Shown here piece after piece: positions 1-5,152 of a stretch of DNA of 5,152 nt. The position numbers were made by a program, and so were the translations under genes. This DNA is from a virus. Numbering within the stretch: position 1 is the stretch's first letter; every line of letters starts with the position of its first letter. The DNA lies in the UHGV virus genome UHGV-0387548; one strand, 5' to 3'. Below the pieces are notes generated by a model. That model was given only the letters and a program-made list of their open reading frames with translations. It ran no database searches and was not told the DNA's origin.

Positions 1-822
1 ACTACGTCTAGTTGTGGTTGTAGTAGTTCCACCACGCCTAGAAGTAGTTGTTACATCAACACCTGGGATCCAATCAGCAAGTTGACTCAGTTTATCTAAT
101 ACATAATCAAGATTTTTAGCACCTGTTGAATTTTCCCATGCCTTTTCATCTTTTTTCAATAAAGACAAAACAACCTCAGCTTGCTCATTTTCTAACTCTA
201 TACCTTTAGCATCTAATCTGTTTTTAATAATTTCTGTCTGTGCTTTTAAACTATTCGCTCTCAAAACATCCTGTTGCAACTTTTCAGTATTAATTTTATG
301 AGATGCCAAAGCATTTTCTAATTGTTTTCTAGCTCTATCATAAGCAAACAAAGTATTGTTATTTTCTATTGCAGTAGCCTCAGCATTAGTTTTTCTAGCT
401 TGAGCATCAATAATTTTGCTTTGTGAATCAATAACTTTACCTTGCTTTTCTTCATTAACAGTTTGTTGCTCCTGTAATTTAGCACCTGCTTCAGCACTTT
501 TGCCTTGTTGTTTTTGCAATTTTGCAGTACTAAGAACAGAAATAAGTTCAGGATTGAAATGCTGTAACTGTGCTTGTGATCCTGCAGGAGTCGTTGCACC
601 TGCACTGGCGTTATCAACTGCCAAAAGTGGATTTAATCCTGCATTTCTCAAATCTTGCATCCTTCTACTAATTGCAGTATTGCTCATCTCTTCCTGAAAA
701 CGTCTGTTTTTTTCTGCTTCATGTTTTGCAGAATTATTTCCTAAAATAGTACTAGCAATTCCACCAGCTGCACCCACTAAATCTCCTGCAATACTTCCAA
801 AACTAAAACCTATATTAATCAC
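1..822 (-). CDS. Microviridae VP2-like minor capsid / DNA pilot protein. N-terminal 274 codons only; the ORF continues past the window start, and it appears to use a non-AUG start.
   Basis: I translated the minus-strand frame by hand. It is open from the in-frame TAG at 825..823 down to position 1 (274 codons). It is not in the supplied ORF track because it is truncated by the window edge. The translation contains GFSFGSIAGDLVGAAGGIASTILG (Gly-rich hydrophobic N-terminal segment) followed by NRRFQEEMSNTAISRRMQDLRNAGLNPLLA. I recognise this as the conserved ERMSNTA...AGLNP block of gokushovirus-type VP2 proteins. The rest is a long Q/K/E/A-rich, probably coiled-coil, region ending in a Thr/Arg-rich tail TTTSRRGGTTTTTTRRS at the window edge. 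The first in-frame ATG is at 687..685, downstream of the Gly-rich segment. Candidate starts upstream of it are GTG 822..820, ATT 819..817 and ATA 813..811. Confidence 0.8.
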   Translation of the reverse strand, partial: MINIGFSFGSIAGDLVGAAGGIASTILGNNSAKHEAEKNRRFQEEMSNTAISRRMQDLRNAGLNPLLAVDNASAGATTPAGSQAQLQHFNPELISVLSTAKLQKQQGKSAEAGAKLQEQQTVNEEKQGKVIDSQSKIIDAQARKTNAEATAIENNNTLFAYDRARKQLENALASHKINTEKLQQDVLRANSLKAQTEIIKNRLDAKGIELENEQAEVVLSLLKKDEKAWENSTGAKNLDYVLDKLSQLADWIPGVDVTTTSRRGGTTTTTTRRS

Positions 823-1074: not shown

Positions 1075-2019
1075 CTATCTATTTACATTCTTAAATGAAT
1101 TATAAATCTCTCTTCTAATTTTACCTTGTTGGAGAACCCAATCATAAATATCAAAATAGTGTAAATCATATTTATTCATAAGCTCTTTATTCTGCTCTTT
1201 TATTAACAAATCACATCTAGCCTTATACAACTTATAACATTCTTGAATAGCTATATTTTCTGTATTTTCACAATATTTAAGAAAACTCCGAGGTATACCA
1301 ACTTGTTTACCTCTACTATCTAAGACATAACCCAAGTTTAAAATTTGCTCATAGTTTGATAAAAAATAATCCAGTCCTAAAATCTTTTTAGGGTAAACTA
1401 AATATGGTTTCCTAACTTTCTTACCATTAACAACAAAATCATCTTGTTTAATTTCTCCAAACTTAACCATATATTTTGCCATATAAGGAGCTGTATGCTC
1501 ATCAACAGTACCAACTTTAACAAAACCTGCTCCCCAAACTTCCTCTAAAAATTTATCAATATACATATTATATTTCTTTTTAGATGTACCATAATATTTT
1601 AAATCTGAGTCTTTAGGTCTATAACCGAAAAGTATCATGTGAAAATGTGGGCGTCCATTCTCATGTCCATACTCACCACAAACAAGATACTTAATCTTTT
1701 TACCTTCATGATAATCTAACCTTCTTCTAAGCCTTTTCATGAATTTTTGAAAATAAGCATGATGTAAAGAACCATCTGGAAAGACCTCATCTATATAATC
1801 ATCATTAACAGTTAAATGAACAAACCATACTTCATTTTGTGCATAATTTGCTAACTCATATCTAACACGTTGTGCAAGTTGAGTTCTCCATTTTTTTTTA
1901 CAATCAGGACATCTACCACACGGCACAATAGCATAGTGCCACAAATCAGGGTTTTTACTATTAAATTGAAATTTATGTTCTACTTTATCCCAGTAAATTT
2001 TTAAAGGTGACATACACAT
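1075..2019 (-). CDS. Rolling-circle replication initiation protein (Microviridae VP4 / phiX174 gpA-like, HUH endonuclease superfamily I), 314 aa
   Basis: The ORF track protein contains RCR motif 1 (FVHLTVND), motif 2 HUH (RPHFHMILFG) and motif 3 with two catalytic tyrosines spaced by 3 residues (TAPYMAKYMVKF, compare phiX174 A YVAKYVNK). It also has a Cys cluster CGRCPDC near the N-terminus. The start ATGTGTATG is preceded by TAAGGTGAT, and the SD overlaps the TAA stop of the upstream 101-aa ORF. The stop is TAG at 1077..1075. Confidence 0.95.
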   Translation of the reverse strand: MCMSPLKIYWDKVEHKFQFNSKNPDLWHYAIVPCGRCPDCKKKWRTQLAQRVRYELANYAQNEVWFVHLTVNDDYIDEVFPDGSLHHAYFQKFMKRLRRRLDYHEGKKIKYLVCGEYGHENGRPHFHMILFGYRPKDSDLKYYGTSKKKYNMYIDKFLEEVWGAGFVKVGTVDEHTAPYMAKYMVKFGEIKQDDFVVNGKKVRKPYLVYPKKILGLDYFLSNYEQILNLGYVLDSRGKQVGIPRSFLKYCENTENIAIQECYKLYKARCDLLIKEQNKELMNKYDLHYFDIYDWVLQQGKIRREIYNSFKNVNR

Positions 2020-2028
2020 ATTATCACC

Positions 2029-2334
2029 TTAATTATCAAAACCGATTATAACATAAACTTCACCAAGTCCACGCTCATCATCATCAGTAGTTCTGACATA
2101 TAAATTAATCTCATAATCATCTTGCATATCATAAACAAAATCATCAACTAATGTTTTAAACATTGGATTATCAAATTTACGTCTAGACATATAAGAAGAT
2201 AAACCACACTCACCACCATCATTATAATAAAAATCAAAACTACCAAAACCATAATCTTTTAAATTATTTAAAAAATCAACTATTTTTATCATTTCTCTTC
2301 TAGTTAAAACTATTTGACCTTCTCTTAAACTCAT
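2029..2334 (-). CDS. Hypothetical acidic protein, 101 aa, translationally coupled to Rep
   Basis: It is a complete ORF in the track. It is the first gene after the large intergenic region on the coding strand. Its stop TAA overlaps the SD (TAAGGTGAT) of the Rep gene. By my count it has 20 D/E against 11 K/R residues, and it is rich in Tyr/Phe. Its SD (AGGAG) lies 14 nt from the ATG, which is a longer spacing than for the other genes. I recognise no motif in it. Confidence 0.55.
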   Translation of the reverse strand: MSLREGQIVLTRREMIKIVDFLNNLKDYGFGSFDFYYNDGGECGLSSYMSRRKFDNPMFKTLVDDFVYDMQDDYEINLYVRTTDDDERGLGEVYVIIGFDN

Positions 2335-2795: not shown

Positions 2796-2820
2796 AAAAG
2801 AAAAAAGCCCCTTTCGGGGC
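2796..2820 (-). terminator. Rho-independent terminator of the VP1/137-aa ORF transcription unit
   Basis: On the minus strand, 15 nt after the TAA stop of the 137-aa ORF, there is GCCCC-GAAA-GGGGC. This is a 5-bp all-GC stem with a GNRA tetraloop. It is followed by TTTTTTCTTTT. On the plus strand the same hairpin is followed by GGTATAGGG with no T tract, so it works in one direction only. Confidence 0.8.
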
Positions 2821-2835
2821 GGTATAGGGTGAATT

Positions 2836-3249
2836 TTAGGCCTTTGGCAATTCTTGAACTTCAGGTATAACAGTTGGAGTATCTGGAACAACAGGTTTTT
2901 CGATAACTTCATTGCCTTTAATTTCGTAATTATCAGGATTGCTACAATATTCAAAGAATCTTTGAGGAGTTCCAAACATTTGTTTAGCCTTATCATCTAA
3001 GTGTAAAAACTTTCTCTCAATCTTAGCTTTTTCATTTTGCCAATCTTCAAAAGTCCACTTCGAAGTATCATAATTATAAATATCATACACAGGAGTTCTC
3101 GGCGTTCCTCTATAATTTACTAACAATTGTTCTATCTCACACATAGACTTAAAGCTTTGGTCAGTTAAAGAATAATCATTATTGACTGTTCCTTTCTCTT
3201 TAGACCAAGAATCTTTATTAAAATATGTTACAAAAGGTATTTTTGCCAT
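2836..3249 (-). CDS. Hypothetical protein, 137 aa, immediately downstream of and coupled to the major capsid gene. Possibly scaffolding/VP3-like by position only.
   Basis: It is a complete ORF in the track. Its start ATG 3249..3247 is preceded by AGGAGGTGAgaaa, and that SD overlaps the TAG stop of VP1 (TAGGAGGTGAGAAAATG). It is charged and aromatic-rich and has a Pro-rich C-terminal tail (KPVVPDTPTVIPEVQELPKA). I recognise no family motif. It is followed by the intrinsic terminator. Confidence 0.65.
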   Translation of the reverse strand: MAKIPFVTYFNKDSWSKEKGTVNNDYSLTDQSFKSMCEIEQLLVNYRGTPRTPVYDIYNYDTSKWTFEDWQNEKAKIERKFLHLDDKAKQMFGTPQRFFEYCSNPDNYEIKGNEVIEKPVVPDTPTVIPEVQELPKA

Positions 3250-3260
3250 TTTCTCACCTC

Positions 3261-4871
3261 CTATATTCTACCAGCAAGTAAGCTAGGGTCAGCAGTAACA
3301 GGTAATGGTCTAGTAGCTTTAATGTCAAACCAAATGTCCATAATGATATCCGGCTCGTTTGGAGCAGAAAGAACACGTTCGACCGGTGTAGTACTTTCCA
3401 AGAATTTACTGTTAAGCTTTGGTAATGTCTCGAATTTCTCCGCTAAGTGCCAGACATCAAGAGAATCAGCAACTCCAGACCTCATTTTACCAGTGATTTT
3501 GTTTACACCTTCTCTTAATTCTCTATATCTTTCTTGATATCCAAAGACAGCATCATTAGTCGCTTTATCAGCAGACAAGAATATCTCTTTATTGTAGACG
3601 GCTTGGTCACCTAAATTCCAGAAAGCTGGGTTCATATAATCCCATCTCGAAGATTTATTAAACTTTCTTGCAACACCTTGTTGGTAAGTTACATCAGCAG
3701 AGGCACAACACATAATCATAAAAATTCCATGCTCAACTGCAGAAACTTCACAAAGGTTATTATTTTGTTGTCCTACTCCTATACCTGTAAGGTTACCTTG
3801 TGGGGAAACTTCATTCGTAGCTGAGTTTTGAACAACTGGATTAATAACTATGTCCGACGTACAAGAACCTAAAAATTGACTTCTACCTAAAAGGAAATCA
3901 GGGCAAGTTACATCATAGTGCATTTTAACCAATTCTGGATATCTCTCACCAGCACGGGCATCACGTTCAAGTAATACCTGTAAAGCACTTGCTTTTCTTA
4001 AAGCTTCTACTGAAACACCTGTTACTTGAGACATATCAGCATATAAATTACCACTTGCATCATCATTATTCCAATAAGGATCGTTATCTTTACGAATAGC
4101 AGCTTTAACTGATCCACCGGCTTCGATATTCTGAATATTCATAACAACATCATTATGACCTAACGAACTCCTAGACATGATAGGAGCATTACCAACAAGA
4201 GGAATCGTAACTGCCTCACCTGATTGAGGATATGGAAGGCAAGAAGTGAAATAATCTAAAGGTTTACCTTTCTTTAGAATATTATATGTTTTTAAAGTGT
4301 CTTTATCTTCCGCTTTATCACTTATAAGATTATCACCTGTAAATTCTTTTAAAGGCTCTTGTATCTCATTTGCTCTAAACCAATCGTTCCAGATTTTATT
4401 ATAGGCTCTGAATGGTAAAGCACTGACTGTATAATCACAATTAGTACCAGTAGGAGGGCAGCCAAGATAATCAGCTAAACCACCAACAGTATTTTCTGCA
4501 ACTTTCATATTAAGTTGGGGGACTAAATAGTCATTATGGTCATCTTGCCATGTTTTTTCACCCATGAAATTTAGGAAGTGTTTCCATAATAATCTGTTTG
4601 GGACCCAGAAAGCAAAGAATTTTAATTTCACATTATCCATTACAGGAGCAATGGTAGGCATCAATCTGCAAACAGATGCAACATCTACTTCAAAATGATC
4701 ACCTGGGGAAAGTTCTTCCCAATAGACAGGATAAAGATTATCGAAATCAATACAAGTTTTTAAACCTTCACTCAAGTTAAAAGTAGACTTCATACCTTTA
4801 GCCTGAGGTAGAATGTTACTATCAAGTATCACTCTATTGGGCATCTTCATGCTAAATTTTGCACTATTCAT
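3261..4871 (-). CDS. Major capsid protein (Microviridae VP1 / phiX174 F-like jelly-roll capsid), 536 aa
   Basis: It is a 536-aa ORF. The N-terminus aligns with phiX174 F: ours M-N-S-A-K-F-S-M-K-MP-N-R against phiX M-S-N-I-Q-T-G-A-E-R-MP-H-D. Also GDHFEVDVASVCRLMP against GDSFEMDAVGALRLSP, and FFAFWVPNRLLW against FTFYVPHRHVY. The size is typical for Microviridae VP1. The ATG start overlaps the TAA stop of the upstream 32-aa ORF (TAATG). The stop is TAG 3263..3261. Confidence 0.95.
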   Translation of the reverse strand: MNSAKFSMKMPNRVILDSNILPQAKGMKSTFNLSEGLKTCIDFDNLYPVYWEELSPGDHFEVDVASVCRLMPTIAPVMDNVKLKFFAFWVPNRLLWKHFLNFMGEKTWQDDHNDYLVPQLNMKVAENTVGGLADYLGCPPTGTNCDYTVSALPFRAYNKIWNDWFRANEIQEPLKEFTGDNLISDKAEDKDTLKTYNILKKGKPLDYFTSCLPYPQSGEAVTIPLVGNAPIMSRSSLGHNDVVMNIQNIEAGGSVKAAIRKDNDPYWNNDDASGNLYADMSQVTGVSVEALRKASALQVLLERDARAGERYPELVKMHYDVTCPDFLLGRSQFLGSCTSDIVINPVVQNSATNEVSPQGNLTGIGVGQQNNNLCEVSAVEHGIFMIMCCASADVTYQQGVARKFNKSSRWDYMNPAFWNLGDQAVYNKEIFLSADKATNDAVFGYQERYRELREGVNKITGKMRSGVADSLDVWHLAEKFETLPKLNSKFLESTTPVERVLSAPNEPDIIMDIWFDIKATRPLPVTADPSLLAGRI

Positions 4872-4969
4872 TAAAACACTCTCCTTCCACCTCTAGTGTA
4901 TGGGACAAATTGGGATTGGTACAAAAATGTTTTAGAAAACTGTATTCTTCTAGCTCTATTTAATCTCAT
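4871..4969 (-). CDS. Arginine-rich 32-aa peptide (MRLNRARRIQFSKTFLYQSQFVPYTRGGRRVF). Candidate J-like DNA-binding/packaging protein.
   Basis: Translated by hand, as it is below the track's size cutoff. ATG 4969..4967 is preceded by AGGAGGT plus a 6-nt spacer. It has 7 Arg and 1 Lys, no acidic residues, and an aromatic C-terminus. Its stop TAA 4873..4871 overlaps the VP1 ATG 4871..4869 (TAATG). The position immediately upstream of the capsid gene mirrors phiX174 gene J (38 aa, basic) upstream of F. Confidence 0.5.
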   Translation of the reverse strand: MRLNRARRIQFSKTFLYQSQFVPYTRGGRRVF

Positions 4970-5126
4970 TATTTACCTCCTCTTTTTCCAAGTTATTAAT
5001 AGCTCTAACAGCTCGTACAATGAATTCAGAAAACGAAAGATTGAACTTTTCATCTTGTAAGAAACCACCTCTTTTTAATTTTTTCAATGTCCAATAACCT
5101 TGAACAAGATCTATAACATCATTCAT
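4956..5126 (-). CDS. Hypothetical 56-aa protein (MNDVIDLVQGYWTLKKLKRGGFLQDEKFNLSFSEFIVRAVRAINNLEKEEVNNEIK)
   Basis: Translated by hand. ATG 5126..5124 is preceded by AAAGGTAGGTGATTGAA, the same 12-mer SD context (AGGTAGGTGATT) as at the VP2 start. An in-frame TAG lies just upstream, so the start is inside the window. The stop TAG 4958..4956 overlaps the start of the 32-aa ORF by 14 nt. I recognise no motif. Confidence 0.45.
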   Translation of the reverse strand: MNDVIDLVQGYWTLKKLKRGGFLQDEKFNLSFSEFIVRAVRAINNLEKEEVNNEIK

Positions 5127-5129
5127 TTC

Positions 5130-5141
5130 AATCACCTACCT
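5130..5141 (-). promoter_or_regulatory. Ribosome-binding site AGGTAGGTGATT upstream of the 56-aa ORF
   Basis: Identical 12-mer to 828..817. The ATG is 4 nt downstream of the GGTGAT core. Confidence 0.6.
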
Positions 5142-5152
5142 TTTTAAAAACG

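Follow-up and report, generated by a model that had tools for sequence, protein, structure and literature searches.

The 5,152-nucleotide virus genome UHGV-0387548, referred to here over its full length as the window, carries a 32-codon open reading frame (ORF) whose stop codon overlaps the start of the major capsid gene, VP1. This ORF is a real gene under protein-level purifying selection. It has the motif layout of the gokushovirus protein VP8, which no other ORF of the genome shows. Judged by its sequence and setting, we consider it, with a probability of about 0.8, to be VP8 (ORF8) of a divergent gokushovirus-like lineage, by function and by probable homology. An original prediction made from the letters of the window alone had proposed a J-like DNA-packaging protein new to its lineage. 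The small, basic, capsid-linked gene it described is genuine and a DNA-binding function of the J type is probable on sequence grounds, but the novelty did not hold: the ORF is most likely an overlooked annotation and not a new kind of protein.

The ORF lies on the minus strand and encodes MRLNRARRIQFSKTFLYQSQFVPYTRGGRRVF, a peptide with seven arginines, one lysine, no aspartate or glutamate and a computed isoelectric point of 12.0, in agreement with the position, length and composition first given for it. Its arginine codons are, as had been remarked, mostly AGA (six AGA and one AGG). The 5' end of the gene reads GAGGAGG-TAAATA-ATG AGA TTA AAT AGA GCT AGA AGA ATA CAG TTT TCT AAA ACA, and its predicted strong Shine-Dalgarno (SD) sequence is thus present as GAGGAGG, six nucleotides from the ATG and within the 3' end of an upstream 59-aa ORF. 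The frame continues TTT TTG TAC CAA TCC CAA TTT GTC CCA TAC ACT and ends AGA GGT GGA AGG AGA GTG TTT TAA-TG, where the stop overlaps the VP1 ATG (4871..4869) as the expected TAATG. The codons for RGGRR near this end also hold AAGGAG (4886..4881), the likely SD of VP1, nine nucleotides before the VP1 ATG, and part of the basic character could therefore have been a by-product of the VP1 ribosome-binding site. Size alone does not single the ORF out, because this 32 % GC genome holds 50 ORFs of at least 25 aa.

Relatives of the window were found through VP1 protein searches. These yielded four IMG/VR contigs (our loci L001-L004), with VP1 proteins 79-88 % identical to that of the window, and five GenBank genomes with VP1 identities of 76.5 % (MG945195), 72 % (MG945371), 72 % (MG945222), 54 % (MG945678) and 52 % (KT264834). 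The gene order in the relatives is VP4-VP2-(~250-300 nt gap)-VP1; MG945195 also has an annotated VP3 past VP1. Translation of the VP2-VP1 gap revealed the same 32-aa peptide in each of these nine. Peptide-alignment scans added one further IMG/VR contig and 12 metagenome contigs, as well as a contig assigned to a metagenome-assembled genome (MAG). VP1 identity was measured in part of this set, where it ranged from 88 to 52 %. Each of the 22 full-length copies found is intact and has exactly 32 codons, so the frame is neither missing nor broken in the close relatives, where its absence would have told against a gene. A GGAG/GGAGG-type motif is kept shortly upstream of the ATG in clade members while the flanks vary.

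The 22 copies represent 18 different DNA sequences that encode 16 different peptides, and they vary as a coding sequence does. Among the 32 codons, 29 vary at the third position, 19 at the first and 15 at the second. Pooled synonymous diversity (pS) was 0.615 and nonsynonymous diversity (pN) 0.184, giving a ratio of 0.30 in the ORF frame, compared with 1.89 and 1.42 when the frame was shifted. The peptides share 13 invariant residues (M1, Q10, S12, F15, Y17, Q18, P23, R26, G27, G28, R29, R30 and F32), several of them despite codon changes: Ser12 is written TCT, TCA, TCC or AGT, Arg26 AGA or CGT, Arg29 AGG, AGA or CGC, and Arg30 AGA or CGT, and overall the invariant residues show synonymous exchange among AGA, AGG, CGT, CGC and CGA for arginine and between TCN and AGT for serine. 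These exchanges answer the concern, raised at the outset, that AT-rich AGA codons might produce the basic character by chance. The peptide is at least as conserved as the capsid protein, with identities of 87.5, 75, 66 and 53 % in relatives whose VP1 proteins are 76.5, 72, 52 and 54 % identical. We also considered that RGGRR might be nothing but the VP1 SD read in another frame. This was rejected, since the codons change synonymously and since MG945678 (L027) keeps FRGGRRLF although its ORF stops 76 nt before a VP1 gene that has its own SD; RGGRR is thus a protein motif and not merely a ribosome-binding site.

Contrary to the premise of the original prediction, a short J-like peptide is not foreign to gokushoviruses. 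VP8/ORF8 is their recognised J analogue (PMC11281519, PMC7062461, PMC9431446): it belongs to a set of six genes conserved in gokushovirus prophages of enterobacteria (PMC7062461) and is equated with gpJ in comparison tables (PMC9431446). In the table of PMC9431446, it is the external scaffold D and the spike G that are missing from gokushoviruses. The protein is annotated as ORF8 in Chp2 (CAB85594, MRLKMARRRYRLPRRRSRRLFSRTALRMHPRNRLRRIMRGGIRF), and the 38-aa phiMH2K protein (AAG45348, MKRKPMSRKASQKTFKKNTGVQRMNHLNPRAMRGGIRL) is described in GenBank as a 'putative DNA binding protein; similar to bacteriophage phiX174 J protein'. SpV4 ORF8, which ends ...RRKVKNTKRHQWRLTHSARSIKRANIMPSNPRGGRRF, is present as 60 chains of 'DNA binding protein ORF8' in PDB 9CGM, and phiEC6098 VP8, which ends ...SMRGGIRL, is chain E of PDB 8DES. 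Inside the capsids of SpV4 and phiEC6098, the two for which this is known, the C-terminal Phe of VP8 is buried within a hydrophobic pocket of VP1, and the VP8 N-terminus takes an ordered form only in the presence of DNA (PMC11281519). Throughout the family, VP8 and J are conserved in structure over their final four residues, which occupy the same buried hydrophobic capsid pocket (PMC11281519). With VP8 known as a core gokushovirus protein, a claim of novelty for this lineage is unsupported.

The case for VP8 rests in part on the motifs of the peptide and their order. A six-frame scan of 30 other microvirus loci found that 28 of them carry, on the strand of VP1, a single small basic ORF whose end reads RGG-x-R-(L/F/M/I)-stop; SpV4 ORF8, Chp2 ORF8 and the 'J-like' protein of phiMH2K are among the 28, and the ORFs share a basic N-terminus, S-K/R-x-F and this tail. 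Two loci, L010 and L012, gave no match to the motif in the scan. In every clade genome the 32-codon candidate was the sole ORF ending RGG-x-R-x(x)-stop, and the six-frame scan revealed no second VP8 candidate in these genomes. An alignment of 18 reference VP8s showed N25, R33, G34, G35 and R37 to be invariant and F15 nearly so; of these, the candidate shares the F, within FSKTF, and R-G-G-x-R. Its tail, RGGRRVF-stop, has one extra residue before the terminal Phe, and RGGRR and the terminal F are invariant in the 22 copies. The motifs are collinear with those of known VP8s, from the M-R/K-rich start through FSKTF (SQKTF in phiMH2K) to RGGRRVF (RGGRRF in SpV4, one residue shorter). Like classical VP8, the candidate is small, free of acidic residues, rich in Arg/Lys, encoded on the strand that carries all other genes and present once per genome. 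In the VP1 protein of the window, the residue aligned to the SpV4 pocket residue Y83 is a Phe, within K-F-F-A-F-W; this is weakly suggestive, being compatible with burial of a C-terminal Phe.

Profile comparisons pointed the same way without being strong. In ten clade genomes, a VP8 hidden Markov model (HMM) was run against all 1,477 stop-to-stop ORFs (~148 each), and the candidate ranked first in 5/10 genomes. Alignment of the clade profile with VP8 by hhalign gave P values of 0.006-0.007 over 25-29 collinear columns ending at the C-terminus, and only 4/400 shuffles of the clade-alignment columns reached the observed score, so the match exceeds what composition would give.

Several results weigh against identifying the peptide as VP8. 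The VP8 HMM E-values for the candidate were only 0.19-6.5 and the hhalign probability for the match was only 5-6 %. The candidate did not match PHROG 10695, the classical VP8 family, and the clade profile retrieved only chance matches from the PDB (NMDA receptor, uL4 and TIR proteins, E >0.6). No sequences bridging the clade and classical VP8 were found: when viral, metagenome and genome collections were scanned with peptide patterns, every match belonged to the clade; a DNA pattern for a narrow form of the RGGRRxF-stop tail matched the clade and, by chance, L055; and an exhaustive phmmer search of protein clusters gave no bridge either. Composition differs too. The candidate has 8 basic residues (25 %) compared with 12-19 (32-46 %) in classical VP8, which places its charge density of 0.25 at the low end for VP8-type peptides (0.32-0.46), and clade members have 5-7 aromatic residues (~20 %) compared with 1-3. 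Given the low charge and the aromatics, DNA neutralisation may not be the main role of the candidate. The peptide is also, at 32 aa, 6-12 residues shorter than the 38-44 aa of classical VP8. More generally, searches against Pfam, PHROGs and NCBIfam with E up to 10 placed the candidate in no family. As a control, the bona fide SpV4 VP8 likewise misses PHROG 10695 and finds only itself by phmmer in the PDB; since an authentic member fails, family-HMM tests on such short, fast-evolving peptides cannot exclude VP8 membership.

Gene position is a further difference. Comparison of VP8 stop coordinates with VP1 starts placed VP8 ~1-2 kb upstream of VP1 in the classical loci sampled (Chp2, phiMH2K, SpV4 and others), with Rep between the two genes in Chp2 and phiMH2K, whereas the candidate abuts VP1 in the order VP4-VP2-ORF59-VP8-VP1-VP3. 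This location, unlike that of any classical gokushovirus sampled and with other genes intervening there, together with the lack of HMM-level similarity to VP8, the distinct composition and the failure of the scans to find intermediates, would be expected if the peptide were a functional analogue and not a VP8 homologue, that is, a VP1-adjacent capsid-internal peptide that arose independently or was remodelled. Its aromatic mid-section could then have the main part, a VP1-binding 'lining' or 'cement' role in which charge neutralisation is minor, and in the fullest form of the idea a gokushovirus-like lineage would have convergently recreated the J-F module of phiX174. We regard such an origin, in each of these forms, as unlikely. 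The analogue would have had to acquire the same C-terminal RGG-x-R-hydrophobic-stop, the same S-K-x-F in the same order and a similar length; it would be present in one copy in genomes that have no other VP8; and its collinear profile score is better than that of 99 % of column shuffles.

The comparison with phiX174 J that motivated the original prediction was sound as to position before the capsid gene but does not extend to a match with the Microvir_J family. Both peptides are small and basic, lack acidic residues and are encoded just before the capsid gene (F in phiX174), and the C-terminal G-G-x-x-F tail of J is a further resemblance. They differ in charge (12 basic residues of 38 in J, 8 of 32 here) and in coupling: J (848-964) is start-coupled to the stop of D and lies 36 nt from F (1001-2284), whereas the candidate is stop-start coupled to the capsid gene itself. 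Pfam and PHROG searches with ORFs of the window revealed, among those tested, no homologue of the phiX174 proteins D and G, and its scaffold is a VP3 of the Chp2 type. While phiX174 J matches Pfam PF04726 Microvir_J at 1.7e-16, the candidate gave no match at E up to 10, and classical VP8s miss the family as well.

The junction with VP1 takes four forms within the clade, TAATG being one. The TAATG overlap occurs in the window, L003, L024, L028, L033, L042 and L043; in L001, L002, L044 and L045 the TAA is followed directly by an in-frame TTG; in L025/26 and L046-L050 a probable GTG start of VP1 lies 10 nt inside the 3' end of the ORF; and in L027 a 76-nt spacer separates the genes. Tight VP8-VP1 coupling is therefore common and would suit a 1:1 stoichiometry in the virion, yet it is neither universal nor guaranteed, and the earlier statement that the overlap guarantees co-expression was too strong. 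In the four genomes with the in-frame arrangement (L001 1808-1935, L002 2642-2770, L044 and L045), readthrough of the stop would yield a VP8-VP1 fusion. Such a fusion was rejected as a general feature, as the frame relation is not conserved and the window itself is out of frame, and the in-frame relation of these four genomes is probably incidental.

The stop-start overlap or abutment in most clade members, and the position of the VP1 SD within the 3' end of the ORF, also raise the idea of a regulatory upstream ORF or leader, in which translation itself and not the peptide delivers ribosomes to VP1 by termination-reinitiation. We find this very improbable. Selection acts on the amino-acid sequence (pN/pS 0.30, with 13 invariant residues that undergo synonymous changes), the junction type varies, and the peptide is also conserved in L027, where 76 nt separate the genes and VP1 is served by an SD of its own. 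Coupling is compatible with a structural role for the peptide but does not explain its conservation. A chance ORF in AT-rich intergenic DNA, made basic by purine-rich SDs and AGA codons, or a conserved non-coding element is already refuted, whatever the low GC content, the 50 ORFs and the overlap of RGGRR with the VP1 SD may lend it, by 22/22 intact copies of constant length, variation concentrated at third positions (29/32, versus 19 and 15), shifted-frame pN/pS above 1, the lack of any Rfam match and the retention of RGGRR where it is not the VP1 SD. Intact copies, pN/pS, codon exchanges and the motif in L027 thus show that neither chance nor a non-coding element nor a pure leader ORF is a sufficient explanation, and two of the checks originally proposed for the gene, a search of related genomes for a short basic ORF directly before VP1 and codon-level conservation across homologues, came out in its favour.

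If the peptide is VP8, its role can be sketched by analogy with the solved VP8 structures and would entail virion incorporation, DNA binding, anchoring to the capsid, 1:1 stoichiometry and translational coupling. The peptide would be made in about equimolar amounts with VP1, because the genes would be co-transcribed and, in the window genome, joined by the TAATG stop-start overlap. On the inner face of VP1, a hydrophobic pocket would anchor the C-terminal ...RGGRRVF and bury its last Phe; the aromatic mid-section QFSKTFLYQSQFVPY would run along the inner capsid wall, and the Arg-rich N-terminus MRLNRARR and the C-terminal arginines would touch, and partly neutralise, the packaged single-stranded DNA (ssDNA). 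At 60 copies per T=1 particle, the peptide would contribute ~480 positive charges against 5152 phosphates.

The gene had, as originally suspected, been missed by annotation. It is unannotated in 5/5 GenBank relatives, and an exhaustive phmmer search of 1.84 billion cluster representatives returned a single 32-aa relative, the clade member MRKSRARARQFSKSFIYQSKTVPNYRGGRRVF; a second match, to a 303-aa repeat protein, was spurious. VP8 in general is systematically under-annotated, because PHROG 10695, which holds Chp2 ORF8 (E 5.8e-19) and phiMH2K VP8 (8e-08), is labelled 'unknown function' in PHROGs v4 and does not capture SpV4 VP8.

By its gene content the window is a gokushovirus-type microvirus, with VP1 (Phage_F), a Chp2-type VP3 scaffold, VP4 Rep and a VP2-like ORF, and the same content is present in its relatives; this setting also speaks for the VP8 reading. 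The features are collected in Table 1; every recognisable gene is on the minus strand. Because the 276-aa VP2-like ORF crosses the junction of the window ends (822..1, then 5152..5144), the window is a complete, circle-closing genome. The VP1 N-terminus can be aligned with those of other gokushovirus VP1 proteins. Only one terminator-like hairpin was found in the window by consensus scan, and the VP2-ORF59-VP8-VP1-VP3 transcript probably ends there, forming one transcription unit. A promoter scan of the window gave sites no commoner than in shuffled sequence, an Rfam scan with E up to 1 gave no match, and megablast of the whole window against phage records gave none.

Table 1. Coordinates of features in the 5,152-nt window (-, minus strand).
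Feature	Coordinates	Strand	Remarks
32-codon VP8-like gene	4871..4969 (ATG 4969..4967, stop TAA 4873..4871)	-	encodes MRLNRARRIQFSKTFLYQSQFVPYTRGGRRVF
Shine-Dalgarno GAGGAGG of the 32-codon gene	4982..4976	-	6-nt spacer to ATG
Codons 26-30, AGA GGT GGA AGG AGA = RGGRR (AGAGGTGGAAGGAGA)	4880..4894	-	conserved C-terminal VP8 motif
Small upstream ORF (ORF59), 59 aa as listed from GTG	4956..5135	-	conserved
VP1 major capsid protein	3261..4871	-	Pfam Phage_F E 1.9e-136; PHROG 514 E 3.8e-166
VP3 internal scaffold	2836..3249	-	next after VP1, same direction; Pfam Chlamy_scaf E 1.1e-11
Terminator-like hairpin GCCCC GAAA GGGGC + T-run	2807..2820	-	just past VP3; consensus scan only
101-aa ORF	2334..2029	-	
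VP4 Rep	2019..1075	-	REP_ORF2-G2P E 3.4e-20; PHROG 942 E 1.8e-65
VP2-like ORF, 276 aa	1..822 + 5144..5152	-	same position as relatives' annotated 'similar to VP2'

Two neighbouring ORFs have features of their own. The C-terminus of the VP2-like ORF, ...SRRGGTTTTTTRRSRF, contains an odd run of Thr with Arg clusters on both sides. ORF59, the last 14 nt of which overlap the start of the 32-codon gene, more likely starts at an ATG a few codons downstream of the listed GTG, at 'MNDVIDLVQGYW...' (MNDVIDLV...). Its peptide is conserved across the clade members examined and belongs to no Pfam, PHROG or NCBIfam family, and ORF59 could be another unrecognised core gene of the lineage.

Some of the contigs bear on the lifestyle and host of the clade. 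L050 (ENA OWPF01000316, human gut, 58,997 nt; locus ~430-5520 and 5611-6093) contains a complete clade genome with an intact VP8, its flanks are unlike those of the circular relatives L048 and L049, and the right flank encodes a tyrosine recombinase of the Phage_integrase family (E 3.3e-22). This clade genome is probably an integrated prophage, and if so the clade would be temperate. L058 (CAUWNL010000234.1, 4790 nt), a phage-sized clade contig, was binned in an uncultured Sarcina sp. MAG, a weak host hint with which the low GC content (32 %) of the window and its many AGA codons agree. Some contigs exceed one genome unit (~4.8-5.2 kb), namely L043 (NFZC01008978.1, 10,724 nt), L001 (5,884 nt) and L049 (5,874 nt), and are probably assembly concatemers of circular genomes.

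What is new here is modest: a divergent, unannotated VP8 subfamily with an aromatic mid-section, a lower charge and a position abutting VP1. A VP8-like gene in this clade overturns no current view, and its value is mainly practical, as a probable core structural gene is absent from the annotation of a whole gut-associated microvirus clade. A simple signature, namely a short coding-strand ORF that lacks acidic residues and closes with RGG-x-R-x(x)-stop, could serve to recover VP8 from Microviridae metagenomes. On the reading as VP8, the clade also shows how far the protein can drift, to 8 basic and ~20 % aromatic residues, while its C-terminal anchor is kept and its gene moves next to VP1. This drift and relocation would bear on how much charge neutralisation the packaging of ssDNA needs.

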